A DNA stretch of 64,000 nucleotides. Origin: Squalus acanthias (Eukaryota). A program made the translations under genes and the position numbers. Shown in pieces: positions 16,997 through 47,819 of the stretch. The notes below the pieces were generated by a model. It was not told where the DNA came from. It did no database searches and was given only the letters and a program-made list of their open reading frames with translations. The first letter of the stretch is position 1. Every line of letters begins with the position of its first letter. The DNA lies in contig CM059431.1 in the NCBI GenBank assembly GCA_030390025.1, positions 147,500,001-147,564,000 of the forward strand. The letters run 5' to 3'.

Positions 16997-17054
16997 CTCT
17001 GCTTGGAGTTAGAATCTGACAATCTGTACCCTCGGGAGTCACTGGTATACTTAC

Positions 17055-17065
17055 CAGACTTCTAC
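17055..17065 (-). other. Candidate 11-nt micro-exon upstream of ART copy 1 (identical copy at 19095-19105)
   Basis: Minus strand TTTCTGTCTTTCTGATTGGCAG|GTAGAAGTCTG|GTAAGT: good acceptor and consensus donor, but the following intron would be only 53-58 nt. Confidence 0.35.
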
Positions 17066-18175: not shown

Positions 18176-19036
18176 TTAGGTGGGGCTGAGGGGTGCGAGG
18201 GTTTGGGGTTGGTCAGGTGGGATTCTGGAGGATTTATTGCGGCAGTACCAGGTGAGACTCCCACCTCCCCCCAGAATGACCAAGATCCCCAAAGCGGTCG
18301 GAAACCAGACCCACCAAGGGGTTATGGAATAAACGATCAGACTACCCGACCCGTCCGACCCGAGCCCCACCATCACTCCCTCGTAGCCTGTCGATTCGAG
18401 GGTGTATCTGTTCCCTCCTGACAAGGGGATGATGCCTTTGATTATGAACTTCTCGGAAGGTGGGATCAAGACCTCCTCTTGCGATGGTCTGAACGAGAAC
18501 TTTCGGAGGTCGACACCGTACGATGTGCTTATCACAAATAAAGGCTTTATCCCAAACTTCTCAGCCAGCACCTCATTGAAGGAAGTGGAGGCAAATATTC
18601 CAAACCTCAATTCTGTGCCCGGCTTCCCAGGGACCAAACTCCCAGAGATATTATTCCATGTCCCCCGATACATCAGTCGCCCAATGGAACTGTTTCTCAA
18701 CTCGTCCAGGGCGACAGATAGAAGGTAGTGAAAGCTCTTCAGTTTAAAGCAGGCATTGTATTTGTTGAGGTCACCGCCATAGCTTCGAACCCCACCGTTC
18801 AAGCCACTGTACAAATCTCCACCAAAGGTGTAGGCGGTCATGGCGATGAAATGCTCCTCTCGGAGACCACGAAGCTCTTTGTCTGTGTTGCCTTCCCAAC
18901 TGTTGGAGGCCTCTTTCCAGATACTCTTAAACACCGGGTCCCTCCCCAGCTCTTTCTCCAGGGATTTTATCACCAAGTCATCGGACGCCTCGCTCCGCGA
19001 GAAGTAATAGGCGGCAGAATTTTCTTCCATGTTCAT
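18176..19036 (-). CDS. Ecto-ADP-ribosyltransferase (ARTC)-like catalytic exon, copy 2
   Basis: 286-aa ORF, 5 aa differences from copy 1; YRGT, FASTS, SQEEVLIPPSE; same TM and tail. Confidence 0.88.
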   Translation of the reverse strand: MNMEENSAAYYFSRSEASDDLVIKSLEKELGRDPVFKSIWKEASNSWEGNTDKELRGLREEHFIAMTAYTFGGDLYSGLNGGVRSYGGDLNKYNACFKLKSFHYLLSVALDELRNSSIGRLMYRGTWNNISGSLVPGKPGTELRFGIFASTSFNEVLAEKFGIKPLFVISTSYGVDLRKFSFRPSQEEVLIPPSEKFIIKGIIPLSGGNRYTLESTGYEGVMVGLGSDGSGSLIVYSITPWWVWFPTALGILVILGGGGSLTWYCRNKSSRIPPDQPQTLAPLSPT

Positions 19037-19147
19037 CTCTGCTTGGAGTTAGAATCTGACAATCTGTACCCTCGGGAGTCACTGGTATACTTACCAGACT
19101 TCTACCTGCCAATCAGAAAGACAGAAATCCAACTTATACAGCGACTT

Positions 19148-19908
19148 TCACTCCCTCAGTACTGCCCTACCGACAGTGCAGCGCTCCCTCAGTACTGACC
19201 CTCCGACAGTGCAGCGCTCCCTCAGTACTGCCCCTCCGACAGTGCAGCAGTCACTCAGTACTGCCCCTCCGACAGTGCAGCGCTCCCTCAGTACTGACCC
19301 TCCGACAGTGCAGCGCTCCCTCAGTACTGACCCTCCGACAGTGCAGCGCTCCCTCAGTACTGCCCCTCCGACAGTGTAGCACTCACTCAGTACTGCCCCT
19401 CCGACAGTGCAGCGCTCCCTCAGTACTGACCCTCCGACAGTGCAGCGCTCCCTCAGTACTGACCCTCCGACAGTGCAGCGCTCCCTCAGTACTGCCCCTC
19501 CGACAGTGCAGCGCTCCCTCAGTACTGACCCTCCGACAGTGCAGCGCTCCCTCAGTACTGCCCCTCCGACAGTGCAGCGCTCCCTCAGTACTGCCCCTCC
19601 GACAGTGCAGCACTCCCTCAGTACTGCCCCTCCGACAGTGCAGCGCTCCCTCAGTACTGCCCCTCCGACAGTGCAGCGCTCCCTCAGTACTGCCCCTCCG
19701 ACAGTGCAGCACTCTCTCAGTACTGCCCCTCCGACAGTGCTGCGCTCCCTCAGTACTGCCCCTCTGACAGTGCGGTGCTCCCTCAGCACTGCCCCTCCGA
19801 CAGTGCGGCACTCCCTCAGTACTGCCCCTCCGACAGTGCGGCGCTCCCTCAGTACTGCCCCTCCGACAGTGCGGCGCTCCCTCAGTACTGTCCCTCCGAC
19901 AGTGCAGT
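19148..19908 (-). repeat. 33-bp SINE-derived minisatellite
   Basis: Tandem unit as above. Confidence 0.92.
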
Positions 19909-20019
19909 GTAGCAGGAGAGGACAAAAGGTTTGTGGAATTGAAGTCAGCGTTGTGGTTTTGTGCTCTGTCTCAGCATTCACTGCACTTTAAACATCTTCT
20001 CACTGTCAACATGCAAACG

Positions 20020-20390
20020 TACTGAACCTTATTTAGACCGCACTTGGAATACTGTGCACCGTTCTGGTCTCCAGACCGCACTTGGAGCACTGAGCACAGT
20101 TCTGGTCTCCATATCACACTAGGAGAACTGTGCACAGTTCTGGTCTCCATATCACATTTGGAGCACTGTGCACAGTTCTGGTCTACATATCACACTAGGA
20201 GAACTGTGCACAGTTCTGGTCTCCATATCACACTTGGAATACTGTGCACAGTTCTGGTCTCCATATCACACTTGGAGCACTGTGCACAGTTCTGGTCTCC
20301 CTATCACACTTGGAGCACTGTGCACAGTTCTGGTCTCCATATCACACTTGGAGCACTGTGTACAGTTCTGGTCTCCATACCACACTTAGA
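20020..20390 (+). repeat. 38-bp CR1-derived minisatellite with native CR1 lead-in (copy at 25383-25750)
   Basis: CTTATTTAGACCGCACTTGGAATACTGTGCACCGTTCTGGTCTCC precedes the array. Confidence 0.88.
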
Positions 20391-21180: not shown

Positions 21181-21184
21181 CATA

Positions 21185-21925
21185 TTAGGGTTGGTGACCT
21201 ATAGCTTGGTCAAAGAGGGAGGCTTTAAGGAGAATCTTAAAGGAGGAGAGAGAGGCGGAGAGGTTTAGGGTGGGAATTCCAGAGCTTAGTGGCCCAGGCA
21301 GCTGAAGGCACGGCCGCCAATAGTGGAGCGATGGAAATCGGGGGATGCACAAGAGGCCAGAATTGGGGGAGCGCAGAGACCTTAGAGGGATGTAGGGCTG
21401 GAGGAGGTTACAGAGATAGGGAGGGTTGTAGGGGCTGGAGGAGTTTACAGAGATAGGGAGGGTTGTAGGGGCTGGAGGAGGTTACAGAGATAGGGAGGGT
21501 TGTAGGGCTGGAGGAGGTTACAGAGATAGGGAGGGTTGTAGGGCTGGTGGAGGTTACAGAGATAGGAAGGGTTGTAGGGGCTGGAGGAGTTTACAGAGAT
21601 AGGGAGGGTTGTAGGGGCTGGAGGAGGTTACAGAGATAGGGAGGGTTGTAGTGCTGGAGGAGGTTACAGAGATAGGGAGGGTTGTAGGGGCTGGAGGAGG
21701 TTACAGAGATAGGGAGGGTTGTAGGGCTGGAGGAGGTTACAGAGATAGGGAGGGATGTAGGGCTGGAGGAGGTTATAGAGATAGGGAGGCTTGTAGGGCT
21801 GGAGGAGGTTACAGAGATAGGGAGGGTTGTAGGGCTGGAGGAGGTTACAGAGATAGGGAGGGTTATAGGGGCTGGAGAAAGTTACAGCGATAGGGATTGT
21901 TGTAGGGCTGGAGGAGGTTACAGCG
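21185..21925 (-). mobile_element. L2 LINE 3' fragment running into the 36-bp minisatellite (duplicate at about 26548-27250)
   Basis: Minus strand reads PPYLCNLLQPY..LRSPNSGLLCIP..GGRAFSCLG..WNS, typical of the L2 ORF2 end. Confidence 0.75.
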
Positions 21926-21929
21926 CCCC

Positions 21930-23432
21930 ATCAGTGCTGCCCCTCCGACAGTGCAGCACTCCCTCAGTACTGCCCCTCCGACAGTGCGGCGCTCACTCAG
22001 TACTGTCCCTCCGACAGTGCAGCGCTCCCTCAGTACTGCCCCTCCGACAGTGCGGCGCTCACTCAGTACTGTCCCTCCGACAGTGCAGCGCTCCCTCAGT
22101 ACTGCCCCTCCGACAGTGCAGCACTCCCTCAGTACTGCCCCTCCGACAGTGCAGGACTCCCTCTGTACTGCCCCTCCGACAGTGCGGCGCTCACTCAGTA
22201 CTGTCCCTCCGACCGTGCGGCGCTCCTTCAGTACTGCCCCTCCGACAGTGCAGCGCTCACTCAGTTCTGCCCCTCCGACAGTGCTGCGCTCCCTCAGTAC
22301 TGCGCTCCCTCAATACTGCCCCTCTGACAGTGCAGCGCTCCCTCAGTACTGCCCCCACCGACAGTGCAGCGCTCCCTCAGTACTGCCCCTCTGACAGTGC
22401 AGCGCTCCCTCAGTACTGCCCCTCCGACAGTGCAGCGCTCCCTCAGTACTGCCCCTCCGACCGTGCAGCGCCCCCTCAGTACTGCCCCTCCGACAGTGCA
22501 GCGCTCCCTCAGTACTGCCCCTCCGACAGTGCAGCGCTCCCTCAGTACTGCATGTCCGACAGTGCAGCACTCCCTCAGTACTGCCCCTCCGACAGTGCAA
22601 CGCTCCCTCAGTACTGCCTTAACGATGGTGCAGCACTCCCTCAGTACTGTCCCTTTGACAGTGCAGCGCTCCCTCATTACTGCCCCACCGACAGTGCAGC
22701 GCTCCCTCAGTACTGGCCCTCTGACAGTGTGGCGCTCCCTCAGTACTGCTCCTCTGACAGTGCAGCGCTCCCTCAGTACTGCTCCTCCGACAGTGCAGCG
22801 GTCCCTCAGTACTGCCTCTCCAACAGTGCAGCGCTCCCTCAGTACTGCCCCTCCGACAGTGTAGCGCTCCCTCAGTACTGCCCCTCCGACAGTGCAGCGC
22901 TCCCTCAGTACTGCCCCTCCGACAGTGCAGCACTCCCTCAGTGCTGCCCCTCCAACAGTGCAGCGCTCCCTCAGTACTGCCCCTCCGACAGTGCAGCGCT
23001 CCCTCAGTACTGCCCCTCCGACAGTGCAGCGCTCCCTCAGTACTGCACCTCCGACAGTGCAGCGCTCCCTCAGTACTGCCCCTCTGACAGTGCAGTGCTC
23101 CCTCAGTACTGCCCATCTGACAGTGCAGCACTCCCTCAGTACTGTCCCCCGACAGTGCAGAGCTCCCTCAGTGCTGCCCCTCCGACAGTGCAGCACTCCC
23201 TCAGTACTGTCCCCCGACCGTGCAGTGCTCCCTCAGTACTGCCCCTCCGACAGTGCAGAGGTCCCTCAGTACTGCCCCTCCGACAGTGCAGCGCCCCCTC
23301 AGTACTGGGCAACAGGGGATTGTCAGCCTGGGTTTATGGGGCTCGAGTCCCTGGAGTGGAGAATCTGGAACCCACGACCGTCTGACTCAGAGGCGAGAGA
23401 GACTGAGACCCACTGAGCCACGACTGACAGGT
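21930..23432 (-). repeat. 33-bp minisatellite with SINE head at about 23310-23432 (duplicate at 27258-28758)
   Basis: Array followed by reverse-strand head with GTGGCTCAGTGGG and GGTTCCAG. Confidence 0.9.
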
Positions 23433-23517
23433 AGGAAAGAATGTCATTGATGAGGAAGATATGTAGCAGGAGAGGACAAAGGGTTTGGGGAATTGGAGTC
23501 AGCGTTGTGGTACTCGC

Positions 23518-23554
23518 AGGACGTCAGGAACAGAATGTGAAACAGCCTCTCCAT
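23518..23554 (-). CDS. Putative leader (signal-peptide) exon copy A, MERLFHILFLTS, GC donor
   Basis: AAGATGG Kozak context, hydrophobic 12 codons + 1 nt, donor GCGAGT (GTGAGT in copies C and D). Confidence 0.45.
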
Positions 23555-23659
23555 CTTTACTTCAACACAAGGATTCCGGCAATAAAACAACTTTTCCTCA
23601 CAATCAGCTACACTCTGCAAGAAAATAGTCGCTCAACTGAATTACTATAATCCACGGGA

Positions 23660-23834
23660 GGAAGTGAAACCACCTGCCACTATTTTAATCTTTTCAATCT
23701 CGAGTCTCACACATCAGATTGGTCTGTGGGCAATGAATAATGCTCTAAAACATCATCCTGTCCACTTTAAACATCTGTTCACTATCAACATGCAAACATA
23801 CTGAACCTTGTTTAAACAGTGGGAGGAAGTGAAA
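23660..23834. promoter_or_regulatory. Two Ets-IRF composite (EICE-like) motifs GGAAGTGAAA upstream of leader exon A (copies at 28987-28996 and 29152-29161)
   Basis: GGAAGTGAAAC at 23660 and 23825. Confidence 0.5.
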
Positions 23835-26800
23835 CTTTGTTGGTTTCTGGTTTGTGGCGAGTTGGCAGTGGGCAGATGGGTCACACATTTCCCTTCATTG
23901 AAAGACTTTTGCATTTCTACAGCGGCTTTCACCTCCTCCGGCACGTCCCAAAGCGCTTCACAGCCAATGAAGTGCTTTGTTTTTGAAATGTTGTAGTGTG
24001 GGAAACGCGGAAGCCATTTGCGCACAGCAAGATCCCAGCGTGATAATGACCAGATCATCTGTTGTAGTGATGTTGTTGGAGGGATTAATATTGGCCCCAG
24101 GACACCGGGGATAACTCTCCCCAGTTCTTCTTCGCAATAGTAAAAAAAGAAAGACTTGCATTTCTATAGCGCCTTTCACGACCACTGGACGTCCCAACGC
24201 ACTTTACAGACAATGAAGTGATTTTTTTTTGGAGTGTAGTCACTGTTGTAATGTAGGAAACTCGGCAGCCAATTTGCGCACAGCAAGCTCCCACAAACAG
24301 CAACATGATAATGATCAGGTCATCTCATTTTTAGTGATGTTGGTTGAGGGATAAATATTGCCCGCAGGATACCGGGGAGAAGTCCCTGCTGCCCTTATTC
24401 GAAATAGTGCCCATGGGATCTTTGACACCTGAGAGAGCAGACGGTTTAACGTCTCATCCGAAAGACAGCACCTCCGGCAAGCCCCTTCACAATCTTATAT
24501 GTTTCAATAAGATCGCCTCTCCTTCTTCTGAACTCCAATGAGTAGAGTCCCAATCTACTCAACCTCTCCTCATATGTCCACCCCCTCATCCCCGGGATTA
24601 ACCGAGTGAACCTTCTTTGTACTGCCTCGAGAGCAAGTATGTCTTTTCTTAAGTTTGGACACCAAAACTGTATGCAGTATTCCAGGTGCGGTCTCACCGA
24701 TACCTTATATAACTGCAGCAATACCTCCCTGTTTTTATAATCTATCCTCCTAGCAATAAAAGCCAACAATCCGTTGGCCTTCTCAGTACTGACCCTCCGA
24801 CAGTGCAGCGCTCCCTCAGTACTGACCCTCCGACAGTGCAGCGCTCCCTCAGTACTGCCCCTCCGACAGTGCAGCGCTCCCTCAGTACTGACCCTCCGAC
24901 AGTGCAGCGCTCCCTCAGTACTGCCCCTCCGACAGTGCAGCGCTCCCTCAGTACTGCCCCTCCGACAGTGCAGCACTCCCTCAGTACTGCCCCTCCGACA
25001 GTGCAGCGCTCCCTCAGTACTGCCCCTCCGACAGTGCAGCGCTCCCTCAGTACTGCCCCTCCGACAGTGCAGCACTCTCTCAGTACTGCCCCTCCGACAG
25101 TGCTGCGCTCCCTCAGTACTGCCCCTCCGACAGTGCGGTGCTCCCTCAGCACTGCCCCTCCGACAGTGCGGCACTCCCTCAGTACTGCCCCTCCGACAGT
25201 GCGGCGCTCCCTCAGTACTGCCCCTCCGACAGTGCGGCGCTCCCTCAGTACTGTCCCTCCGACAGTGCAGTGTAGCAGGAGAGGACAAAAGGTTTGTGGA
25301 AATGAAGTCAGCGTTGTGGTTTTGTGCTCTGTCTCAGCATTCACTGCACTTTAAACATCTTCTCACTGTCAACATGCAAACGTACTGAACCTTATTTAGA
25401 CCGCACTTGGAATACTGTGCACCGTTCTGGTCTCCAGACCGCACTTGGAGCACTGAGCACAGTTCTGGTCTCCATATCACACTAGGAGAACTGTGCACAG
25501 TTCTGGTCTCCATATCACATTTGGAGCACTGTGCACAGTTCTGGTCTCCATATCACACTAGGAGAACTGTGCACAGTTCTGGTCTCCATATCACACTTGG
25601 AATACTGTGCACAGTTCTGGTCTCCATATCACACTTGGAGCACTGTGCACAGTTCTGGTCTCCCTATCACACTTGGAGCACTGTGCACAGTTCTGGTCTC
25701 CATATCACACTTGGAGCACTGTGTACAGTTCTGGTCTCCATACCACACTTAGATCTTGGCTCAGCATGCCTCCAGCCCAGTTTGGGAGGGGAGCTTGCTG
25801 TGAGCAGATTGGGTCACACATTTCCATTCATTGAAAGACTTTTCCATTTCTACAGCGCCTTTCACCTCCCCCGGCACGTCCCAAAGCGCTTCACAGCCAA
25901 TGAAGTGCTTTGTTTTTGAAGTGTTGTAATGCAGGAAATGCGGAAGCCATTTGCACACAGCAAGATCCCAGTGTGATAATGACCAGATCATCTGTTTTAG
26001 TGATGTTGTTGGAGGGATTAATATTGGCCCCAGGACACCGGGGATAACTCTCCCCAGCTCTTCTTCGCAATCGTAAAACAAGAAAGACTTGCATTTCTAG
26101 AGCGCCTTTCACGACCACCGGACGTCCCAACGCACTTTACAGCCAATGAAGGGCTTGTTTTTTGTAGTGTAGTCACTGTTGTAGTGTCGGAAACACGGCA
26201 ACCAATTTGCGCACAGCAAGCTCCCACAAACTGCAACATGATAATGATCAGGGCATCTCATTTTTAGTGATGTTGGTTGAGGGATAAATATTGCCCGCAG
26301 GATACCGGGGAGAAGTCCCTGCTGCCCTTATTCGAAATAGTGCCCATGGGATCTTTAACACCTGAGAGAGCAGACGGTTTAACATCACATCTGAAAGACA
26401 GCCCCTCCGGCAGTGCAGCACTCCCTCAGCACTGCACTGGAGTGTCAGCCTAGATTTCTGAGCTAAAGTCTCTGGAGTGGGACTTGAACCCACAACCTTC
26501 TGACTCAGAGGTGAGAGTGCTGCCCACGGAGCCTCCGCTGACACATATTAGGGTTGGTGACCTATAGCTTGGTCAAAGAGGGAGGCTTTAAGGAGAATCT
26601 TAAAGGAGGAGAGAGAGGCGGAGAGGTTTAGGGTGGGAATTCCAGAGCTTAGTGGCCCAGGCAGCTGAAGGCACGGCCGCCAATAGTGGAGCGATGGAAA
26701 TCGGGGGATGCACAAGAGGCCAGAATTGGGGGAGCGCAGAGACCTTAGAGGGATGTAGGGCTGGAGGAGGTTACAGAGATAGGGAGGGTTGTAGGGGCTG

Positions 26801-28844
26801 GAGGAGTTTACAGAGATAGGGAGGGTTGTAGGGGCTGGAGGAGGTTACAGAGATAGGGAGGGTTGTAGGGCTGGAGGAGGTTACAGAGATAGGGAGGGTT
26901 GTAGGGCTGGTGGAGGTTACAGAGATAGGAAGGGTTGTAGGGGCTGGAGGAGTTTACAGAGATAGGGAGGGTTGTAGGGGCTGGAGGAGGTTACAGAGAT
27001 AGGGAGGGTTGTAGTGCTGGAGGAGGTTACAGAGATAGGGAGGGTTGTAGGGGCTGGAGGAGGTTACAGAGATAGGGAGGGTTGTAGGGCTGGAGGAGGT
27101 TACAGAGATAGGGAGGGATGTAGGGCTGGAGGAGGTTTTAGAGATAGGGAGGGTTGTAGGGCTGGAGGAGGTTACAGAGATAGGGAGGGTTGTAGGGCTG
27201 GAGGAGGTTACAGAGATAGGGAGGGTTATAGGGGCTGGAGGAGGTTACAGCGCCCCATCAGTGCTGCCCCTCCGACAGTGCAGCACTCCCTCAGTACTGC
27301 CCCTCCGACAGTGCGGCGCTCACTCAGTACTGTCCCTCCGACAGTGCAGCGCTCCCTCAGTACTGCCCCTCCGACAGTGCGGCGCTCACTCAGTACTGTC
27401 CCTCCGACAGTGCAGCGCTCCCTCAGTACTGCCCCTCCGACAGTGCAGCACTCCCTCAGTACTGCCCCTCCGACAGTGCAGCACTCCCTCTGTACTGCCC
27501 CTCCGACAGTGCGGCGCTCACTCAGTACTGTCCCTCCGACCGTGCGGCGCTCCTTCAGTACTGCCCCTCCGACAGTGCAGCGCTCACTCAGTTCTGCCCC
27601 TCCGACAGTGCTGCGCTCCCTCAGTACTGCGCTCCCTCAATACTGCCCCTCTGACAGTGCAGCGCTCCCTCAGTACTGCCCCCACCGACAGTGCAGCGCT
27701 CCCTCAGTACTGCCCCTCTGACAGTGCAGCGCTCCCTCAGTACTGCCCCTCCGACAGTGCAGCGCTCCCTCAGTACTGCCCCTCCGACCGTGCAGCGCCC
27801 CCTCAGTACTGCCCCTCCGACAGTGCAGCGCTCCCTCAGTACTGCCCCTCCGAAAGTGCAGCGCTCCCTCAGTACTGCATGTCCGACAGTGCAGCACTCC
27901 CTCAGTACTGCCCCTCCGACAGTGCAACGCTCCCTCAGTACTGCCTTAACGATGGTGCAGCACTCCCTCAGTACTGTCCCTTTGACAGTGCAGCGCTCCC
28001 TCATTACTGCCCCACCGACAGTGCAGCGCTCCCTCAGTACTGGCCCTCTGACAGTGTAGCGCTCCCTCAGTACTGCTCCTCTGACAGTGCAGCGCTCCCT
28101 CAGTACTGCTCCTCCGACAGTGCAGCGGTCCCTCAGTACTGCCTCTCCAACAGTGCAGCGCTCCCTCAGTACTGCCCCTCCGACAGTGTAGCGCTCCCTC
28201 AGTACTGCCCCTCCGACAGTGCAGCGCTCCCTCAGTACTGCCCCTCCGACAGTGCAGCACTCCCTCAGTGCTGCCCCTCCAACAGTGCAGCGCTCCCTCA
28301 GTACTGCCCCTCCGACAGTGCAGCGCTCCCTCAGTACTGCCCCTCCGACAGTGCAGCGCTCCCTCAGTACTGCACCTCCGACAGTGCAGCGCTCCCTCAG
28401 TACTGCCCCTCTGACAGTGCAGTGCTCCCTCAGTACTGCCCATCTGACAGTGCAGCACTCCCTCAGTACTGTCCCCCGACAGTGCAGAGCTCCCTCAGTA
28501 CTGCCCCTCCGACAGTGCAGCACTCCCTCAGTACTGTCCCCCGACCGTGCAGTGCTCCCTCAGTACTGCCCCTCCGACAGTGCAGAGGTCCCTCAGTACT
28601 GCCCCTCCGACAGTGCAGCGCCCCCTCAGTACTGGGCAACAGGGGATTGTCAGCCTGGGTTTATGGGGCTCGAGTCCCTGGAGTGGAGAATCTGGAACCC
28701 ACGACCGTCTGACTCAGAGGCGAGAGAGACTGAGACCCACTGAGCCACGACTGACAGGTAGGAAAGAAAGTCATTGATGAGGAAGATATGTAGCAGGAGA
28801 GGACAAAGGGTTTGGGGAATTGGAGTCAGCGTTGTGGTACTCGC

Positions 28845-28881
28845 AGGACGTCAGGAACAGAATGTGAAACAGCCTCTCCAT
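28845..28881 (-). CDS. Putative leader exon copy B, MERLFHILFLTS, GC donor
   Basis: Identical to copy A within the 5.3-kb duplication. Confidence 0.45.
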
Positions 28882-29805
28882 CTTTACTTCAACACAAGGA
28901 TTCCGGCAATAAAACAACTTTTCCTCACAATCAGCTACACTCTGCAAGAAAATAGTCGCTCAACTGAATTACTATAATCCACGGGAGGAAGTGAAACCAC
29001 CTGCCACTATTTTAATCTTTTCAATCTCGAGTCTCACACATCAGATTGGTCTGTGGGCAATGAATAATGCTCTAAAACATCATCCTGTCCACTTTAAACA
29101 TCTGTTCACTATCAACATGCAAACATACTGAACCTTGTTTAAACAGTGGGAGGAAGTGAAACTTTGTTGGTTTCTGGTTTGTGGCGAGTTGGCAGTGGGC
29201 AGATGGGTCACACATTTCCCTTCATTGAAAGACTTTTGCATTTCTACAGCGGCTTTCACCTCCTCCGGCACGTCCCAAAGCGCTTCACAGCCAATGAAGT
29301 GCTTTGTTTTTGAAATGTTGTAGTGTGGGAAACGCGGAAGCCATTTGCGCACAGCAAGATCCCAGCGTGATAATGACCAGATCATCTGTTGTAGTGATGT
29401 TGTTGGAGGGATTAATATTGGCCCCAGGACACCGGGGATAACTCTCCCCAGTTCTTCTTCGCAATAGTAAAAAAAGAAAGACTTGCATTTCTATAGCGCC
29501 TTTCACGACCACTGGACGTCCCAACGCACTTTACAGACAATGAAGTGATTTTTTTTTGGAGTGTAGTCACTGTTGTAATGTAGGAAACTCGGCAGCCAAT
29601 TTGCGCACAGCAAGCTCCCACAAACAGCAACATGATAATGATCAGGTCATCTCATTTTTAGTGATGTTGGTTGAGGGATAAATATTGCCCGCAGGATACC
29701 GGGGAGAAGTCCCTGCTGCCCTTATTCGAAATAGTGCCCATGGGATCTTTGACACCTGAGAGAGCAGACGGTTTAACGTCTCATCCGAAAGACAGCACCT
29801 CCGGC

Positions 29806-32235
29806 AAGCCCCTTCACAATCTTATATGTTTCAATAAGATCGCCTCTCCTTCTTCTGAACTCCAATGAGTAGAGTCCCAATCTACTCAACCTCTCCTCAT
29901 ATGTCCACCCCCTCATCCCCGGGATTAACCGAGTGAACCTTCTTTGTACTGCCTCGAGAGCAAGTATGTCTTTTCTTAAGTTTGGACACCAAAACTGTAT
30001 GCAGTATTCCAGGTGCGGTCTCACCGATACCTTATATAACTGCAGCAATACCTCCCTGTTTTTATAATCTATCCTCCTAGCAATAAAAGCCAACAATCCG
30101 TTGGCCTTCTTGATCACCTGCTGCACCTGGATACTAACTTTTTGATTTTCTTGCACTAGGACCCCCAGATCCCTTTGTACTGCAGTACTTTCCAGTTTCT
30201 CGCCATTAAGATAATAACTTGCTCTCTGATTTTTCCTGCCAAAGTGCATCACCTCACATTTTCCAATATTGTATTGCATCTGCCAAATGTCCGCCCACTC
30301 ACCCAGCCTGTCTATATCCCCTTGTAGGTTTTTTATGTCCTCCTCACTTTCTACTTTCCCTCCCATCTTTGTTTCATCTGCAAACTTTGATATGTTACAC
30401 TCGGTCCCCTCCTCCAAATCGTCAATATAGATTGTAAAGAGTTGGGGACCCAGCACTGACCCCTGCGGAACACCACTGGCTACTGGTTGCCAGTCCGAGA
30501 ATGAACCATTTATCCCAACTCTCTGCTTCCTGTTAGATAACCAATTCTCCACCCATGCCAGAATATTACCCCCAATCCAGTGATTTTTTATCTTGAGCAA
30601 TAATCTTTTATGTGGCACCTTGTCGAATGCCTTCTAGAAGTCTAAATACACTACGTCCACTGGTTCCCCTTTATCCACCCTGTACGTTATGTCCTCAAAG
30701 AACTCAATCAAATTTGTCAGACATGACTTCCCCTTCATAAAGCCATGCTGACTTTGTCCTATTAAATTATGTATATCTAAATGTTCCGTTACTGTCTCCT
30801 TAATAATAGACTCCAAAATTTTACCCACCACAGATGTTAGGCTAACTGGTCTATAATTTCCAGCCTTCTGCCTACTACCCTTTTTAAATAAGGGTGTTAC
30901 ATTCACAGTTTTCCAATCTGCCGGGACCTTTGCTGAGTCCAGGGAATTTTGGAAAATGATTACCAAAGCATCCACAATCCCAACTGCCACTTCCCTCAAG
31001 ACCCTAGGATGTAAGTCATCAGGTCCAGGGGATTTATCCGCCTTGAGTCCCATTATTTTACTGAGTACCAATTCCTCAGTGATTTTAATCGTATTTAGTT
31101 CCTCCCCCCCTAGAGCCCCCTGTTTGTCCAGTGTTGGGATGTTCTTAGTGTCCTCTACCGTAAAGACTGAAACAAAATATTTGTTCAGCATTTTTGCCAT
31201 CTCCATGTTTCCCACCATTAATTTCCCGGTCTCATCCTCTAAGGGACCTATGTTTGCCTTAGCCACCCTTTTTCTTTTTATATAACTATAGAAACTCTTG
31301 CTATCTGTTTTTATATTTTTTGCTAATTTATTTTCATAATCTATCTTCCCTTTCTTAATCAATCCTTTAGTTACTTTTAGCTGTCTTTTGAAGACTTCCC
31401 AATCTTCTATCCTCCCACTAAGTTTGGCTACCTTATATGTCCTTGTTTTTAGTCGGATACTATCCTTAATTTCTTTACTTAGCCACGGATGGCTGTCATT
31501 TCTTTTACACCCTTTTTTCTTCAGTGGAATATATATCTTTTGAAAGTTGTAAAATAACTCCTTGAATGAACACCACTGCTCATGTACCGTCTTACCCTTT
31601 AATCTATTTTCCCAGTCCACTTTAATCAATTCCGCTCTCATACCATCATAGTCTCCTTTATTCAAGCTCAGTACGCTTGTTTGAGAACCAACCTTCTCAC
31701 CCTCTAATTGGATAGGGAACTCAACCATGTTATGGTCACTCATTCCAAGGGGATCCTTAACTAGGACATTATTAATTAATCCTGACTCATTACACAGGAC
31801 CAGGTCCAAGGTTGCTTGCCCCCTTGTAGGATCAGTTACATACTGCTCAAGAAATCCATCCCGAATACACTCAATAAACTCTTCCTCAAGGCTGCCCTGC
31901 CCAATTTGATTTGTCCAGTTATTATGTTAGTTAAAATCCCCCATAATTATAGCTGTTCCCTTATTACATGCCCCAACTATTTCCTTATTAATACTTCTTC
32001 CAGCAGAGTTGCAAATATTAGGAGGCCTATATACTACTCCCACTAGTGTTTTTTTCCCCTTATTATTCCTTATCTCCACCCAAACTGTTTCATTATCCTG
32101 ATCCTTTGACCCAATATCATTTCTCTGTATTACAGTGATTCCTTCCTTTATTAACATAGCCACCCCACATCCCCTTCTTTCCTGCCTGTCCTTCCTGATT
32201 GTTAAATAACCTGGCCTATTTAATTCCCAATCGTT
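29806..32235 (-). mobile_element. CR1 ORF2 fragment (APE C-terminal part + RT), truncated at both ends; partial copy at 24479-24781
   Basis: ORFs 31927-32163, 30634-31809, 29773-30618 with YRPP, GDFN, SDH, NYRPVSL, QHGF, GVPQGSVLGP, FADE. Confidence 0.92.
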
Positions 32236-32244
32236 GTCACCCTG

Positions 32245-33785
32245 CAGGTTGTATGGGCTGGAGGAGGTTACAGAGATAGGGAGAGTTGTAGGGCTGGAGG
32301 AGGTTACAGAGAAAGGGAGGGTTGTAGGGCTGGAGGAGGTTATAGAGCTAGGGAGGGTAATAGGGGCTGGTGAAGGTTACAGCGATAGGGATTGTTGTAG
32401 GGCTGGACGAGGTTACAGCACTCCCTCAGTACTGCCCCTCCGACAGTGCAGCGCTCCCTCTACTGCCCCTCCGACAGTGCGGCGCTCCCTCAGTACTGCC
32501 CCTCCGACAGTGCAGCGCTCCCTCAGTACTGCCCCTCCGACAGTGCGGCGTTCCCTCAGTACTGCCCCCCCCCCGACCGTGCGGCGCTCCCTCAGTACTG
32601 CCCCTCCGACAGTGCAGCGCTCACTCAGTTCTGCCCCTCCGACAGTGCAGCGCTCCCTCAGTACTGCCCCCTCCGACAGTGCAGCGCTCCCTCAGTACTG
32701 CCCCTCTGACAGTGCAGCGCTCCCTCAGTACTGCCCCTCCGACAGTGCAGCGCTCCCTCAGTACTGCCCCTCCGACAGTGCAGCGCCCCCTCAGTACTGC
32801 CCCTCCGACAGTGCAGCGCTCCCTCAGTACTGCATGACCGACAGTGCAGCACTCCCTCAGTACTGCCTCTCCGACAGTGCAGCGATCCCTCAGTACTGCC
32901 CCTCCGACAGTGGGGCGATGCCTCAGTACAACCCCTCTAACAGAGCAGTGCTCCCTCAGTACTGAGCCTCCGACAGAGCAGCGCTCCCTCAGTACTGCCC
33001 CAACGAAGGTGCAGCACTCCGTCAGTACTGTCCCTTCGACAGTGCAGTGCTCCCTCAGTACTGCCCCTCCGACAGTGCAGCGTTCCCTCAGTACTGCCCC
33101 TCCGACAGTGCAGCGCTCCCTCAGTACTGCCCCTCCGACAGTGCAGCGCTCCCTCAGTACTGCCCCTCCGACAGTGCAGCACTGCCTCAGTACTGCCCCC
33201 CCGACAGTGCAGCGCTCCCTCAGTACTGCCTCTCCAACAGTGCAGCGCTCCCTCAGTACTGCCCCTACGACAGTGCAGCGCTCCCTCAGTACTGCCCTCC
33301 GACAGTGCAGCGCTCCCTCAGTACTGCCCCTTCGGCAGTGCAGCGCTCCCTCAGTACTGGCCCTCTGACAGTGCGGTACTCCCTCAGTACTGCCCCTCCG
33401 ACAGTGCGGCACTCCCTCAGTACTGCCCCTCCGACAGTGCAGCGCTCCCTCAGTACTGCCCTCCGACAGTGCAGCGCTCCCTCAGTACTGCCCCTCCGGC
33501 AGTGCAGCGCTCCCTCAGTACTGGCCCTCTGACAGTGCGGCACTCCCTCAGTACTGGCCCTCCGACAGTGCAGCGCTCCCTCAGTACTGGCCCTCTGACA
33601 GTGCGGCGCTCCCTCAGTACTGCCCCTCCGACAGTGCGGCGCTCCCTCAGTACTGGGCAACCAGGGAGTGTCAGCCTGGGATTATGGGGCTCGAGTCTCT
33701 GGAGTGGAGAATCTGGAACCCACGACCGTCTGACTCAGAGGCGAGAGAGAGAGAGAGTCTGAGACCCACTGAGCCACGACTGACA
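32245..33785. repeat. 36-bp L2-derived repeat (32245-32415), 33-bp minisatellite (32416-33655) and minus-strand SINE head
   Basis: Same arrangement as 21400-23432. Confidence 0.88.
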
Positions 33786-33873
33786 GGTAGGAAAGAAAGT
33801 CATTGATCAGGAAGATATGTAGCAGGAGAGGACAAAGGGTTTGGGGAATTGAAGTCAGCGTTGTGGTACTCAC

Positions 33874-33910
33874 AGAACGTCAGGAACAGAATGTGAAACA
33901 GCCACTCCAT
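33874..33910 (-). CDS. Putative leader exon copy C, MEWLFHILFLTF, GT donor
   Basis: ATGGAGTGGCTGTTTCACATTCTGTTCCTGACGTTCT|GTGAGT; IRF-like AAAGTGAAA at 34017-34025. Confidence 0.55.
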
Positions 33911-34547
33911 CTTTACTTCAACGCAAGGATTTCGGCAATAAACCAACTTGTCTTCACAATCAGGTACACTCTGCAAGAAATTAGTCGCTCAACTGCATTA
34001 CAGTATTCCACGTGACAAAGTGAAACCACCTCCTCCTATTATAATCTTTTCAATCTCGCACCTCACACATCTGACTGTCTGAGGGAAATGAATTAATGCG
34101 TTCTATCTCATCTTCTCACTGTCAACATGCAAACGTACTGAACCTTATTTAGACCGTACTTGGAGTACTCTGCACAGTTCTGGTCTCCATATCACACTTG
34201 GAGCACTCTGCACAGTTCTGGTCTCCATATCACACCTGGAGCACCGTGCACAGTTCTGGTCTTCATATCACACTTGGAGCACTCTGCACAGTTCTGGTCT
34301 CCATATCACACCTGGAGCACCGTGCACAGTTCTGGTCTTCATATCACACTTGGAGCACTGTTCATTGTTCTGGTTTCCATATCACACTTGGAGCACTGTG
34401 CACAGTTTTGGTCTCCATATCACACTTGGAGCACTCTGCACAGTTCTGGTCTCCATATCACACTTGGAGCACCGTGCACAGTTCTGGTCTTCATATCACA
34501 CTTGGAGCACTGTGCACAGTTCTGGTCTCCATATCACACTTGGAGTA

Positions 34548-37187
34548 CAGGAAACTCTTTATTAACCGGGACCGGCGTGGTGCCGGTTTATCGAAGGTAC
34601 CGGATAACGGAGAGTTATATCTACCGAGGCTATTTTTAACAAAGAAAAATAAATAAATCAAGAAATGTGCAGTATACAGTATTTGGGTACTCACCTACAG
34701 AATGTTGTGTTAAATGGATAGTGGAAGATGCTTGATTAAGTACAGTACTGCCAGTTGAGGGTAATCCATAACTCTTTAATTACTTAACAGTAAAACAAAA
34801 CTTATAAACGACTGTCTACAGTACTGTAATTGACTGTACACTTATTCCGAGTCATCTGGTTCATCAGAAATATCCGTGCCAGCTGGGTCATCAGGAACAC
34901 GCAGTTGCACCGATGCCACAGATTCTTCAGGCACTTCCGCTGCTGCGACTCTTTTGGAAGCTTTCTTAAACATGTTGCGGATGTCGGTTTGCTTAGTGGA
35001 CTCTTGCCTTTTCTGGAGAAAGGTGGAATGCAGAATATGGAGTTGCATAACTTCTTGTGCAGAGTAGCAAGTCTGCCTTTCAGCAAATTTGAGGATTGTA
35101 GAAAATCCGTCTGCAGCTTTAGCCCAAGAAATCTTCTCTTCTTCAGAAATCTCATCCTCTTCACTTTCCATCTCGCTTTCCTTTTCTTTCTTTGGATTCA
35201 AAACATCCTGAATTATTTCATCATCACTTAGCATATGCACAACACCAACTTCTCTATCTGCATCAACCCACTGCTCGATATCACTTTCACTGAGGTGATG
35301 TAGAGGGTTTGCTGGGCCTGCATTATTCACCATTCCAGCCACTTCCATTATTGTACTCTTCTTGGGACGAACACTGAACCCATGAAATTCCTCCTCTGAA
35401 GAAGAACCTTCAGCAAACATTACAGAAGGCCACAATTTGCGCCAGGCTTGCCTCAGAGTGTGACCTTTCACCAATTTCCAGGAACATGCAACATTATAGA
35501 TGGCATCTTTAATATTGTATTACTTTTGCAAATCTTGAATATTCTCATCTTGGCTTAGCAGTTTACATAGGAAGTCTTTCTTGTAATGACACTTCAGATT
35601 TTGGATAACGCCCTGGTCCATGGGTTGGATGAGAGAAGTTACATTTGGTGGCAAATAAATGGTGAAAATATTTCCCGAAACCAACTGGGATTCATGCGGA
35701 TGGTCTCTGCAATTATCAAGCAATAAAATGCATTTGCTATCTTCAGGTTTCCCTATTTTGCGGAAATGTTCCTTCACAGATGGAACAAAAATATGATGGA
35801 ACCAATCGGAGAAGATTTCCTTATCCATCCAAGCATTTTTTTGAGCTTTGTACTCAACAGGTAAGTGCCTCACATTTTTAAATGCACGGGGATTTTTATA
35901 CTTCCCGATAACAAGAAGTTTAACCCGGTGTGATCCAGCGGCGTACGCACAAGTTAGCACGGTTACACGATCTTTATTTTTCTTGTAACCTGAAGCATTA
36001 GCCTCACTAGCCCCAGCAAGCGTTGATTCTGGCAAAAACCTCCAAAACAAGCCAGTTTCATCGACATTGTAGATCTGTGCTGGCGACAAATCATGTTGCT
36101 GCACAATCCGATTGAAATAATCGCAGTATTCTTCTGCGGCGTCGTGATCAGCTGATTTCTTCTGCCCAGAAATATCGAGTCGTCGTATCCCGTGCCGTAA
36201 CTTGAAGCACGTTAGCCATCCATCAGAGAAAGCACACTTGTCAGTGAGCTCCATCCTTTCGGAGAAATCCTTCGCTTTCTCGATTAGCATGGGTCCGGAA
36301 ATTGGAACACCCTCTTAACGCTTAAGAGAAAACCATTCATAAAGCACGGTATCCAGCTCTTCAAGCTTAGGCTTACGAAGCGTACGCCGTTTCTCTACAC
36401 TCTTAGATGTCTCCGAGCTTGAATAAAACTTGAGCAGCTTATCCTTCTGCGATTTGATGTCGTAGATTGTTGACGAACCGATTTTGAATTCATTCATAAT
36501 GTTGATACGCTTCTCTCCCCTTTCTAGTCGTTGGCATATCTCGATTTTCTGTTTTAAAGTTAAGACCACTCTCTTCCTTTTGCTTGGACCAGCTTTTGGG
36601 AATTCCATAATGCAAGATGGAGGAGATAATTGCCGATGAAGATGGAAAGACACATAGAACAATGGTGGATCGGAAGAGACTACCAGCAGCGTGGCAGACA
36701 CACAGCAAAATGGTGGATCAGAAGAGACTACAGTACCAGCAGCGTGGGAGACACACAGCAAAATGGTGGATCGGAAGAGACTACCAGTACCGGCAGCGTG
36801 GGAGACACACAGCAAAATGGTGGATCAGAAGAGACTACAGTACCAGCATCGTGGGAGACACACAGCAAAATGGCCGATCAGAAGAGACTCCCGGCAGCGC
36901 GGGAGAATCTACTCCTGCTACTGCAGTGTTTCGGACTTCCGACAGCGCCAGGAGGCCGAGTAGTGGCACTTTTGAAAACTACCCCTACTGACTAAATCGG
37001 CGTTCGCGGACTCGGGATCGGCAACATTGCCGGTTATTTGAGAGGAGTTTTCGGAGTACTCGGCGTTCGCGGGAGACTCGGACTCGGCAACATCGCCGGT
37101 TATTTGAGAGGAGTTTTTGGAGGATGATTTTTGTCGGTTAAGCGAGAATTCCGGATATTTGGGTGCCGGATAAACAAAAGTTTCCTG
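34548..37187 (-). mobile_element. Full-length Tigger/pogo (Tc1/mariner superfamily) DNA transposon, 2640 bp
   Basis: Imperfect TIRs CAGGAAACTCTTTATTAACCGG / CCGGATAAACAAAAGTTTCCTG, TA TSD at 34546-34547 and 37188-37189. Confidence 0.93.
34842..36608 (-). pseudogene. Tigger-type transposase (CENP-B-like HTH + DD32D), two in-frame stops
   Basis: [43 protein letters not shown]; single frame broken only by TAA at 36315 and 35520. Confidence 0.92.
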
Positions 37188-38094
37188 TACTGTGCACAGT
37201 TCTGGTCTCCATATCACATTAGGAGCACTGTGCACAGTTCTGGTCTCCATATCACACTTGGAGCACTGTGCACAGTTCTGGTCTCCATATCACACTTGGA
37301 GCACTGTGCACAGTTCTGGTCTCCATATCACACTTGGAATACTGTGCACAGTTCTGGTCTCCATATCACACTTGGAGCACTGTGTACAGTTCTGGTCTCC
37401 ATATCACACTTGGAGCACTGTGCACAGTTCTGGTCTGCATATCACACTTGGAGCACTGTGTATAGTTCTGGTCTCCATATCACACTTGGAGCACTGTGCA
37501 CAGTTCTGGTCTCCATATCACACTTAGAGCACTGTGCACAGTTCTGGTCTCCATATCACACTTGGAGCACTGTGCACAGTTCTGGTCTCCATATCACACT
37601 CGGAGCACTGTGCACAGTTCTGGTCTCCATATCACACTTTGATCTTGGCTCAGCCTGCCTCCAGCCCAGTTTGGGAGGGGAGCTTGCTGTGAGCAGATTG
37701 GGTCACACATTTCCCTTCATTGAAAGACTTTTGCATTTCTACAGCGCCTTTCACCTCCTCCGGCACGTCCCAAAGCGCTTCACAGGCAATGAAGTGCTTT
37801 GTTTTTGAAGTGTTGTAATGTAGGAAACGCGGCAGCCCATTGGCGCACAGCAAGATCCAATGTGATAATGACCAGATCGTCTGTTTTAGTGATGTTGTTG
37901 GAGGGATTAATATTGGCCCCAGGACACCGGGGATAACTCTCCCCAGCTCTTCTTCAGAATAGTAAAAAAAGAAAGACTTGCATTTCTATAGCGCCATTCA
38001 CGACCACCGGTCGTCCCAACGCACTTTACAGCCAATGAAGTACTTTTGAAATGTATTCATCTGAGAGGGCAGACAGGGCCCTGGTTTAATGTCT

Positions 38095-39772
38095 CCTCCG
38101 ACAGTGCAGCACTCCCTCAGTACTGACCCTCCGACAGTGCAGCGCTCCCTCAGTACAGCCCCTCCGACAGTGCAGTGCTCCCTCAGTCCTGCCTCTCCGA
38201 CAGTGCAGCACACCCTCACTACTGACCCTCCGACAGTGCAGCTCTCCCTCAGTACTGCCCCTCCGACAGTGCAGCGCTCCCTCGGTACTGACCCTCTGAC
38301 AGTGCAGCGCTCCCTCAGTACTGCCCCTCCGACAGTGCAGCGCTCCCTCAGTACTGCCCCTCCGACAGTGCTGCGCTCCCTCTGTACTGACCCTCCGGCA
38401 GTGCAGCGCTCCCTCAATACTACCCCTCCGACAGTGCAGCGCTCCCTCAGTACTGCCCTTCCGACAGTGCGGCGCTCCCTCAGTACTGCCCCTCCGACAG
38501 TGCAGCGCTCCCTCAGTACAGCCCCTCCAACAGTGCAGCGCTTCCTCAGTACAGCCCCTCCGACAGTGCAGCGCTCCCTAAATACAGCCCCTCCGACAGT
38601 GCGGCGTTCCCTCAGTACTGCCCCTCCGACAGTGCAGCGCTCCCTCAGTACAGCCCCTCTGACAGTGCGGCGCTCCCTCAGTACTGCCCCTCCGACAGTG
38701 CAGCGCTCCCTCAGTACAGCCCCTCCGACAGTGCGGCGTTCCCTCAGTACTGCCCCCCCCGACATGCGGCGCTCCCTCAGTACTGCCCCTCCGACAGTGC
38801 AGCGCTCCCTCAGTACTGCCCTTCCGACAGTGCGGCGCTCCCTCAGTACTGCCCCTCCGACAGTGCAGCGCTCCCTCAGTACAGCCCCTCCGACAGTGCA
38901 GCGCTTCCTCAGTATAGCCCCTCCGACAGTGCAGCGCTCCCTAAATACAGCCCCTCCGACAGTGCGGCGTTCCCTCAGTACTGCCCCTCCGACAGTGCAG
39001 CGCTCCCTCAGTACAGCCCCTCTGACAGTGCGGCGCTCCTCAGTACTGCCCCTCCGACAGTGCAGCGCTCCTCAGTACAGCCCCTCCGACAGTGCGGCGT
39101 TCCCTCAGTACTGCCTCCCCCGACATGCGGCCTCCCTCAGTACTGCCCCTCCACAGTGCCGCGCTCCCTCAGTACTACTGCCCCTCCGACAGTGCAGCTT
39201 TCCCTCAGTACTGCCCCTCCGACAGCAGCGCTCCTCAGTACTGCCCTCCGACAGTGCAGCGCTCCCTCAGTACTGCCCCTCCGACTGTGCAGCACTGCCT
39301 CAGTACTGCCCTCCGACAGTGCAGCGTTCCCTCAGTACTGACCCTCCGACAGTGCAGCGCTCCTCAGTACATCCCCTCCGACAGTGCAGCGCTCCCTAAA
39401 TAAGCCCCTCGACAGTGCGGCGTTCCCTCAGTACTGCCCTCCGACAGTGCAGCGCTCCCTCAGTATAGCCCCTCTGACAGTGCGGCGCTCCCTCAGTACT
39501 GCCCCTCCGACAGTGCAGCGCTCCCTCAGTACAGCCCCTCCGACAGTGCGGCGTTCCCTCAGTACTGCCTCCCCCGACATGCGGCGCTCCCTCAGTACTG
39601 CCCCTCCGACAGTGCCGCGCTCCCTCAGTACTGCCCCTCCGACAGTGCAGCGTTCCCTCAGTACTACCCCTCCGACAGTGCAGCACTGCTTCAGTACTGC
39701 CCCTCCGACAGTGCAGCGTTCCCTCAGTACTGACCCTCCGACAGTGCAGCGCTCCCTCAGTACTGCCCCTCC
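38095..39772 (-). repeat. 33-bp SINE-derived minisatellite (a further array at 40830-41152 with SINE head to about 41285)
   Basis: Tandem unit as above, preceded by SINE tail fragments at 37725-38090. Confidence 0.92.
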
Positions 39773-39774
39773 GT

Positions 39775-40772
39775 ACTCCCTACCTAACAGCACTGTGGGA
39801 GTATCTTCACCACACGGACTGCAGCGGTTCAAGAAGGCAGCTCACCACCACCTTCTCAAGGGCAACTAGGGATGGGCAATAAATGCTGGCCTTGCTAGCG
39901 ACGCCCACATCCCACAAACAAATGAAAAAAATGTGCTGTTAGGGAGGGACTTCCAAGATTTTGACCCAGCGACGATGAAGGATCGGCAATATACTTTTAA
40001 TCAGGATGGTGTGTGACTTGGAGAGGAACTTGGAGGTGGTGGTGTTCCCAAGCGCCTGCTGCCCTTGTCCTTCTAGGTGGAAGAGGTCGCGGGTTTGGGA
40101 GGTGCTGCCGAAGAAGCCTTGGCGAGTTGCTGCAGTGCATCTTGTAGATGGTACACACTGCAGCCACAGTACGCCGGTGGTGGAGGGAGTGAATGTTTAA
40201 GGTGGTGGATGGGGTGCCAATCAAGCGGGCTGCTTTGTCCTGGATGATATCGAGCTTCTTGAGTGTTGTTGGAGCTGCAACTCATCCAGGCAAGTGGAGA
40301 GTATTCCATCACACTCCTGACTTGTGCCTTGTAGATGGTGGAAAGGCTTTGGGAAGTCAGGAGGTGAGACACTCGCCGCACAATACCCTACCTCTGACCT
40401 GCTCTTGTTGCCACAGTATTTATGTGGCTGGTCCAGTTAAGTTTCTGATCAATGGTGACCCCCAGGATGTTGATGGTGGGGGATCCGGCGATGGTGATGC
40501 CATTGAATGTCAAGGGGAGGTGGTTAGACTCTTGCTTGTTGGCGATAGTCATTGCCTGGCACTTCTGTGGCGAGAATATTACCTGCCACTTATCAGCCCA
40601 AGCCTGAACGTCGTCCAGGTCTTGTTGCATGCAGGCATGGACTGCTTCATTGTCTGAGGAGCCTGTGAATGGCGCTGAACACTGTGCAGTCATCAGCGAA
40701 CATCCCCATTTCTGACCTTATGTTGGAGGGAAGGTCATTGATGAAGCAGCTGAAGACAGTTGGGCCTAGGAC
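39775..40772 (-). mobile_element. CR1/L2-group (Jockey-like) LINE 3' fragment with inverted 3' terminus
   Basis: QQDLDDVQAWADKWQ, ILGVTIDQKLNW, YKAQVRSVMEYS on minus strand; 3' UTR + A-rich tail on plus strand at 39775-39931. Confidence 0.8.
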
Positions 40773-41372
40773 ACTTTTGAAGTGTATTCACCTGAGGGGA
40801 CAGTCGGGGCCTCGGTTTAATGTATCATCCAACAGTGCAGCACTCCCTCAGTACTGCCCCTCCGACAGTGCAGCGCTCCCTCAGTACTGCCCCATCCGAC
40901 AGTGCAGCACTCCCTCAGTACTGCCCCTCAGACAGTGCAGCTCTCCCTCAGTACTGCCCCTCCGACAGTGCAGTGCACCCTCAGTGCTGCCCCTCCGACA
41001 GTGCAGGGCTCCCTCAGTACTGCCCCTCCGACAGTGCGGCGCTCCCTCAGTACTGTCCCTCCGACAGTGTAGCACTCCCTCAGTACTGCCCCTCCGACAG
41101 TGCGGCACTCCCTCAGTACTGACCCTCCGACAGTGCAGCACTCCCTCAGTCCTGGACAACCAGGGAGTGTCAGCCTGGGATTATGGAGCTCGAGTCTCTG
41201 GAGTGGAGAATCTGGAACCCACGACCGTCTGACTCAGAGGCGAGAGAGAGAGAGAGACTGAGACCCACTGAGCCACGACTGACAGGTAGGAAAGAAAGTC
41301 ATTGATCAGGAAGATATGTAGCAGGAGAGGACAAAGGGTTTGGGGAATTGAAGTCAGCGTTGTGGTACTCAC

Positions 41373-41409
41373 AGGACGTCAGGAACAGAATGTGAAACAG
41401 CCACTCCAT
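41373..41409 (-). CDS. Putative leader exon copy D, MEWLFHILFLTS, GT donor
   Basis: ATGGAGTGGCTGTTTCACATTCTGTTCCTGACGTCCT|GTGAGT. Confidence 0.55.
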
Positions 41410-41495
41410 CTTTACTTCAACGCAAGGATTTCGGCAATAAACCAACTCGTCTTCACTATCAGGTGCATTCTGCAAGAAATGAGTCGACTACGTGA

Positions 41496-41515
41496 GAAAG
41501 TGAAACCACTTCCTG
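41496..41515. promoter_or_regulatory. ISRE-like GAAAGTGAAA plus adjacent ETS site ACTTCCTG upstream of leader exon D
   Basis: GAGAAAGTGAAACCACTTCCTG about 90 bp upstream of the ATG. Confidence 0.55.
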
Positions 41516-47745: not shown

Positions 47746-47819
47746 GGGCTAAATATTTGATGGTCAGTGTCAAGTTAGTTTAAGTGTTGGGTTTATAGTG
47801 TTTTTAGAGTTTTATTTTG

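Follow-up and report, generated by a model that had tools for sequence, protein, structure and literature searches.

Why does one stretch of the Squalus acanthias genome (assembly GCA_030390025.1, contig CM059431.1, positions 147,500,001 to 147,564,000; all 64,000 nucleotides are called the window below) hold four copies of one short start exon upstream of two ADP-ribosyltransferase (ART) catalytic exons, A and B? The copies, labeled W1 to W4 in order of rising coordinate, lie on the minus strand and each contain 37 nt of leader coding sequence; their ATG is at 23554, 28881, 33910 and 41409 and their last coding base at 23518, 28845, 33874 and 41373, respectively, in the window sequence. The locus had been predicted to be interferon-responsive, with multiplied promoter-leader cassettes that could each splice to either catalytic exon. 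The answer we favor is a different one: the stack is probably a by-product of birth-and-death recombination that is partly used, with real chained splicing. The leader feature itself is real, and its support at the level of the gene family is better than a prediction from the letters alone could show; new here are an acceptor located 60 nt before the leader ATG and splice junctions that join one leader to another.

The leader was found in 31 copies in the genome, at C7:147.34-147.54 Mb and on six unplaced contigs, and all 31 scored candidates fall in ART-bearing regions, where 23 catalytic exons of the subfamily were counted after split pieces had been merged. The usual gene consists of an upstream block, the leader, a satellite-bearing intron (33-nt repeat unit) and a single phase-1 catalytic exon, and in the single-leader paralogs the leader, a short intron and the ART exon likewise follow in phase (the C1296 loci at 241k, 332k, 685k and 756k and the C2664 locus were read within 1.5 kb, their single-leader status being given by the genome-wide leader search). 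The ART protein of Heterodontus (P0004) opens with a similar leader, and the closest named relatives of the family are shark 'ART5-like' proteins with 43-50% identity (50% in Heptranchias). Because the copies lie in ART regions, single-leader genes are in phase and the Heterodontus protein has a similar leader, we conclude that the leader, whose recurrence is no chance event, is the signal-peptide exon of this subfamily and not an interspersed repeat. The latter alternative, which the original prediction had named as a check, is rejected given that all 31 copies stand beside ART exons; dispersed genome matches of the W4 query come only from its bases 1-44, upstream of W4. The leader peptides are nearly invariant across the 31 copies, and the acceptor motif 60 nt before the ATG is kept in all of them with at most one substitution.

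Transcripts were sought in public runs, none recorded as RNA and six guessed to be RNA, with coded metadata in which no stimulated sample could be recognized; exon A was compared with contigs of runs X1, X2, X3 and X5 and W3 with those of X1 to X4, all from one study. Contig cover stops at the acceptor of exon A and at the donor of W3, where the intron start is uncovered in all four runs, as spliced RNA would give. In each of these four runs, the loose ends at the leader donor equal the ART exon start of a paralog class, so that the predicted connection between leaders and ART exons, which had been drawn from strand and position, is supported for the family by both in-phase paralogs and RNA contigs. 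Furthermore, three of the four runs (X2, X3 and X4) contain junctions between leaders that use precisely this donor and acceptor. The junction joins the last base of a leader to position 33970, which directly follows TTTCTTGCAG and lies 60 nt upstream of the ATG; the acceptor at 33971-33972 of W3 is the position used by RNA contigs of related copies. The proposal that the cassettes serve as alternative first exons thus holds as far as splicing to ART exons is concerned, but not as an exclusive role, because leaders also splice together. With a leader ending in T joined to AG, the junction sequence T/AG yields a TAG stop; it is formed at the junction for 28 of the 31 acceptors and within three codons for two more. 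An upstream leader that retains its ATG would therefore become a 12-codon upstream open reading frame (uORF) ending 58 nt before the next ATG.

One contig, X3 record 12, contains an upstream leader copy with 14 differences, including ATG to ATA, followed by a copy identical to W3 over 91 bases. This contig reaches at least 164 nt 5' of the ATG and ends in what we take to be Illumina adapter sequence; the IRF-like (interferon regulatory factor) motif is therefore transcribed in that copy. The upstream copy is nearest to three cassettes, C1296:403k, C348:17k and C464:69k, from which it differs at 7-8 of 137 bases, and attempts to assign RNA to one genomic copy failed, as it is at least 7/137 off every assembled cassette; likewise, at most 16 of the 26 tested differences seen among exon variants in RNA are common to any paralog. 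The longest exon contigs differ from the window exon by 3-5% and match no assembled paralog exactly, and are therefore from another haplotype or a close species. The extra cassettes show decay in the form of GC donors (W1 and W2), a TTG start (C1296:407k) and the ATA start of the RNA copy just described.

How such stacks could arise is suggested by their distribution. Multiplied cassettes, predicted for the window, recur at four other loci and at one more with remnants: at least two intact cassettes precede one exon in the window and at C464:56k, C1296:393k, C514:61k and C7:147349k, and C348:46k holds one intact cassette and two remnants. The stacks are joined through a few shared breakpoints. 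The 33-nt satellite comes after the intron start of the leader in every mapped cassette, the point at which a 36-nt satellite is fused to it is identical in all nine junctions examined, which lie on four contigs, and W4 and a number of orphan leaders have another type of junction in common. Traces of catalytic exons that have been lost remain at C464:25k, where the leader passes straight into the satellite normally located 3' of the stop, and at C1296:412.7k, which retains the acceptor and about 30 exon bases. The 4-cassette array at C1296:393k precedes an exon whose sisters with 98-99% identity belong to single-leader genes; compared with two of these genes, the 3' part of the intron is 97-98% identical, against only 78% for the leader cassette. 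This type of array precedes exons of two separate clades, for which the simplest reading would be that one ancestral array became attached to both by crossing-over in the intron satellite. The idea that the extra cassettes form one clade is unsupported, the cassette tree being poorly resolved and the label requiring five changes.

Within the window, the two units that had been thought to keep the intron side and lack the exon are indeed remnants. The 228-nt gap in them, defined against the nearest intact cassette, spans the upstream motifs and the exon and runs into the donor; the closest intact flank of the first remnant is the leader at G000:C1296:396.9 kb, and the C1296:393k leader cassette is its closest intact match. 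The W1 and W2 cassettes belong to one tandem duplicate (5317 matches and 10 mismatches in 5327 aligned bases). Sequence 5' of W4 has been swapped for other sequence just beyond the IRF-like site.

Taken as a mechanism, satellite-mediated duplication, deletion and unequal crossing-over likely piled up signal-peptide exons in a birth-and-death cluster. The arrays would descend from one or two old fusions and would have moved from one catalytic exon to another through crossing-over within the intron satellite. RNA contigs of related copies show that a cassette exon can be entered through the acceptor 60 nt before its ATG, so that a leader joins either another leader or a catalytic exon. Under this scheme an upstream leader read as a 12-codon uORF would lower translation or trigger decay, the signal peptide would be supplied only by the last leader, and the stack would be mostly a tolerated by-product, with distal cassettes substituting where the nearest leader has been lost.

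Several observations weigh against the by-product account or against the RNA evidence on which its chained splicing is based. The RNA comes from one study and is 3-5% off the window, so the exact window cassettes are not covered, and contigs carry neither expression levels nor start sites. The leader-to-leader contigs of X2 and X4 are 97-nt loops, which back-splicing of a single exon would give too, and only X3 record 12 contains two different leader copies. In two stacked loci with open catalytic exons (C464:56k and C1296:393k) the nearest leader is lost or diverged, and arrays in front of open exons fit use rather than pure debris; C464 has its nearest leader deleted, and any product with a signal peptide would there have to draw on a cassette further away. 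The ATG is kept in 30 of the 31 leaders and the GT donor in 29, which recent copying would also explain. Finally, some of the breaks and duplicates may be assembly errors.

The last possibility extends to the window as a whole: the W1/W2 duplicate, the exon A/B duplicate and the frameshift shared by both exons could be errors of assembly or polishing, with a true locus that resembles C464 in having three leaders and a single open exon. The two copies of the 5.3-kb duplicate are 99.8% identical, and C464, with its single open exon and different cassette count, aligns colinearly with the window at about 97%; tandem repeats make up over half of the window (33,299 of 64,000 bases) and many paralogs are on unplaced contigs. 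Nevertheless, we consider this explanation improbable: exons A and B differ at 10 sites in 946 bases, and 27 of 946 sites, several of them beside the break, separate the window exon from C464, so the window exon looks like a distinct allele or paralog, and the multi-leader layout is present on five other contigs or places.

The same exons bear on the proposal that the window contains four interferon-responsive alternative first exons, each splicing to either catalytic exon and yielding working enzymes. Both exons match Pfam PF01129 (E 2.5e-39 and 4.9e-37; 135 and 128 bits at a cut-off of 22.3) and have the YRG, STS and QEEVLIP motifs, that is, the R-S-E triad; there is no AATAAA or ATTAAA between exons B and A. 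The strand, order and splice phase of the window leaders match the family pattern, and within the family the leader is spliced to ART exons. However, near the 5' end exons A and B are 2 bases shorter than in-frame paralogs, and when read from the acceptor in the leader phase both stop after 41 codons; among the RNA contigs listed, the two that cross the frameshift site (records 8 and 24) are both 2 bases longer than the window. When 22 family exons were tested from the shared acceptor, 10, all at other loci, were open for at least 200 codons and could be joined in frame to the signal peptide, and 12 were broken. The predicted leaders stand, as do the GT donors of W3 and W4, but the donors of W1 and W2 are GC (CCT/GCGAGT) with a poor exon end, and these two are the only ones of the 31 genomic leader copies without a GT donor. 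No RNA piece from the runs on W3 carries the W1/W2 variant set, nor do the contigs of these four runs include a junction into a window-type exon start. The claim that the leaders could splice to either working catalytic exon is thus not supported, and we regard this proposal as very improbable. The window ART copy is most likely a pseudogene, and as read here its exons would yield no signal-peptide-bearing enzyme.

An alternative is that the stack is a selected regulatory device, in which several promoter-leader cassettes serve one catalytic exon and the nearest active one gives a translatable mRNA. Transcription from more distant cassettes would yield chained mRNAs loaded with uORFs and so reduce output, with interferon-type signals tipping the balance. 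Arrays at five loci and one with remnants, the span of shared array ancestry across catalytic exons about 79% identical in DNA, the leader-to-leader junctions in three of four runs and the loss of the ATG from one expressed upstream copy all speak for such a device, as does diversifying selection on the catalytic exons; yet array content varies between loci 97% alike (window, C464, C348) and both window exons are frameshifted. The acceptor motif kept in 31 of 31 copies can be read both ways because it may serve an unseen upstream non-coding exon; none was seen in the loose ends of the runs on W3, where the contigs are insufficient to exclude one. Overall, we hold this possibility to be unlikely. 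Its fullest form, somewhat more doubtful still, would be a copy-number rheostat: diversifying transmembrane ecto-ARTs tuned by stacked promoter-plus-start-exon cassettes that are chained by splicing and possibly switched by interferon, with each extra cassette adding a junction-terminated 12-codon uORF and satellite crossing-over swapping whole stacks.

The interferon component concerns the GAAA motifs, which had been predicted about 90-110 bp 5' of each ATG. They are indeed there, at 88-115 nt (GGAAGTGAAA in W1 and W2, CAAAGTGAAAC at 34017-34026 and GAAAGTGAAAC at 41497-41506), but as one inherited site and not as independent ones. Four independent IRF sites are ruled out because the copies come from one ancestor and the count in the window is not above that in shuffled sequence: AAANNGAAAC occurs 3 times against 1.31 expected, with at least 3 in 16 of 100 shuffles. 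The core TTTCNNTTY, which we take to be the IRF-type consensus, is present in 22 of the 31 leader copies (17 in a stricter form); its absence from the other 9 counts against a regulatory device, and 3 of the 7 open-frame single-leader genes lack it. At least one expressed copy has the motif within its transcribed exon, and on the sense strand the motif is a pyrimidine-rich sequence located 30-55 nt before a used acceptor, so that it might play a role in splicing. In the available text of PMC5705771, IFN-beta induces mouse Art2a (ARTC2.1) in microglia. Because of this inducibility, which also favors the regulatory device, interferon responsiveness of the shark ART locus is plausible by analogy; the likeness between the two is that of immune ecto-ARTs.

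Table 1. Features of the window discussed in the text
Feature	Positions	Strand	Remarks
ART catalytic exon A	16136..17065	-	terminal exon with hydrophobic anchor and stop; frameshift near 5' end
ART catalytic exon B	18176..19105	-	duplicate of A, same frameshift
33-nt minisatellite array	19151..19907		intron before exon B
Remnant of nearest cassette	19908..20044	-	228-nt deletion took upstream motifs, exon and donor region
36-nt satellite fused to 33-nt satellite	21391..23307		fusion point same as at other such junctions
Leader exon W1	23518..23614	-	60-nt untranslated region plus MERLFHILFLTS; GC donor; acceptor AG 23615-23616
Ets-IRF-like variant GGAAGTGAAA	23660..23669	+	present in W1 and W2 cassettes
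5.3-kb tandem duplicate of 19419-24781	24782..30108		99.8%; holds second remnant and W2; junction 24781/24782 inside LINE (long interspersed nuclear element) fragment
Second remnant	25271..25407	-	copy of remnant 19908..20044
Leader exon W2	28845..28941	-	same sequence as W1 across cassette core; GC donor
Leader exon W3	33874..33970	-	MEWLFHILFLTF; GT donor
IRF-like site AAAGTGAAAC upstream of W3	34017..34026	+	RNA contig of related copy covers site, then splices on
Leader exon W4	41373..41469	-	MEWLFHILFLTS; GT donor
IRF-like site AAAGTGAAAC upstream of W4	41497..41506	+	window sequence

Additional features were observed around the cassettes. A GACCAATC/CACCAATC (CCAAT-like) variant, present about 165 nt 5' of the ATG in W1, W2, C464:69k, C1296:403k and C1296:407k, marks one group of array cassettes, which the loose ends of X2 match. 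A DDE_1/Tc5-type transposase remnant is inserted 5' of W3 at window positions 34800-36640 (minus strand) and is common to C464. Further along the window, a triplicated unit of 3.5-4.1 kb (47435-47772, 51567-52130 and 55085-55650) bears CCGGAAGT and CAACATGGCG, which we take to resemble ETS and YY1 sites. Nine close copies of this unit lie on C7 and C514, and many more of about 75% identity are scattered genome-wide; the block of three repeats at 47.4-55.4 kb is an interspersed repeat with local copies and was rejected as ART-linked.

The protein family itself belongs to the ecto-ARTs. Its closest solved relative is the T-cell ecto-ART2 (PDB 1gxy; E 1.3e-16), with which paralog P0001 aligns across the YRG, STS and Q-x-E motifs, reading QQEVLIP, and the window exons and the C464 paralog have the R, the S and the Q-x-E loop as in solved ART2. 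Because the E-x-E loop begins with Q here, activity as an arginine transferase cannot be taken for granted. The dN/dS ratio exceeds 1 in all 28 pairs of 8 open paralogs (median 1.86), pairs that are not independent of each other, and codon models give an omega of 1.96-2.09 with a log likelihood (lnL) 9.4-14.1 above that with omega fixed at 1; the paralogs used come from G000:C7:147.31-147.52 Mb, C1296, C464, C348, C514, C363 and C2664. In the window protein (16139-16280, minus strand) and in shark homologs P0002-P0006, P0016 and P0017, a hydrophobic segment at the C-terminus precedes a short tail that is basic or contains cysteine. Leaving the window protein aside, hydropathy scanning gave a hydrophobic stretch with a short tail in 8 of 9 elasmobranch homologs or paralogs. 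This suggests that the shark ARTs are type I membrane proteins with a predicted transmembrane rather than a glycosylphosphatidylinositol (GPI) anchor. Apart from this subfamily, other clusters (G000:C7:136-154 Mb, C3:115.5 Mb, C3726 and C3114) contain ART exons that are more distant, with 33-42% identity and at least 11 in number. The paralogs L035 and L036 (C1296:332k and 756k) are identical; in both, the anchor segment is present twice and a long tail derives from repeats, with the frame open for at least 499 codons.

In mammalian ecto-ART genes the signal peptide has an exon of its own and the catalytic part occupies a single large exon. The shark genes resemble those of the vertebrate ecto-ARTs (ARTC1-5) in this layout, in the PF01129 domain and in the YRG, STS, Q-x-E and Q-EVLIP motifs. 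They differ in number, with about five genes in mammals versus 23 exons and an omega near 2 in the shark subfamily, and in the anchor, predicted to be transmembrane and encoded in the catalytic exon. In contrast, mammalian ARTC1-4 are GPI-anchored and ARTC5 is secreted, and P2X7 is a target of mouse ARTC2, according to the accessible portion of PMC8415550.

With regard to gene architecture, the nearest comparison is with UGT1, the clustered protocadherins and GCNT2, where tandem first-exon cassettes with their own upstream sequence also precede a shared downstream exon. Such multiple-variable-first-exon clusters are described, in the text available from PMC1885805, as tandem first exons before a shared exon, with pseudogene relics and birth-and-death turnover. 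In these clusters, however, the variable exons encode distinct domains and are spliced separately to constant exons, whereas the shark exons encode a near-invariant 12-residue leader, have their own acceptor and splice together, and differences between loci build up in the downstream exon instead. The shark locus is not a member of this class, since protein diversity does not come from its first exons, which moreover splice to one another. A second likeness is to alternative 5' leaders that bear uORFs, such as long repressive isoforms (available parts of PMC5655150 and PMC6469420), in that an upstream start would put a uORF before the main frame; in the shark, by contrast, the uORF is a duplicate of the start exon of the gene itself, its stop is made by the splice junction and repression is predicted. 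Our literature search, with subscription journals mostly outside its coverage, found no paper on ART clusters of sharks or cartilaginous fish or on stacked-leader architecture, and nothing specific on duplicated signal-peptide first exons, ART gene structure or rat ART2 Q187; the portion of a zebrafish preprint on interferon-stimulated genes that was at hand had no whole-word ART passage.

If the regulatory reading were true, this locus would show partial gene duplication turning a start exon into a translational brake, and would illustrate how regulatory arrays move between paralogs. Even if the stack is a by-product, the locus reveals an expanded shark ecto-ART subfamily with an omega near 2 and a predicted transmembrane anchor, which makes it a candidate arms-race immune effector.

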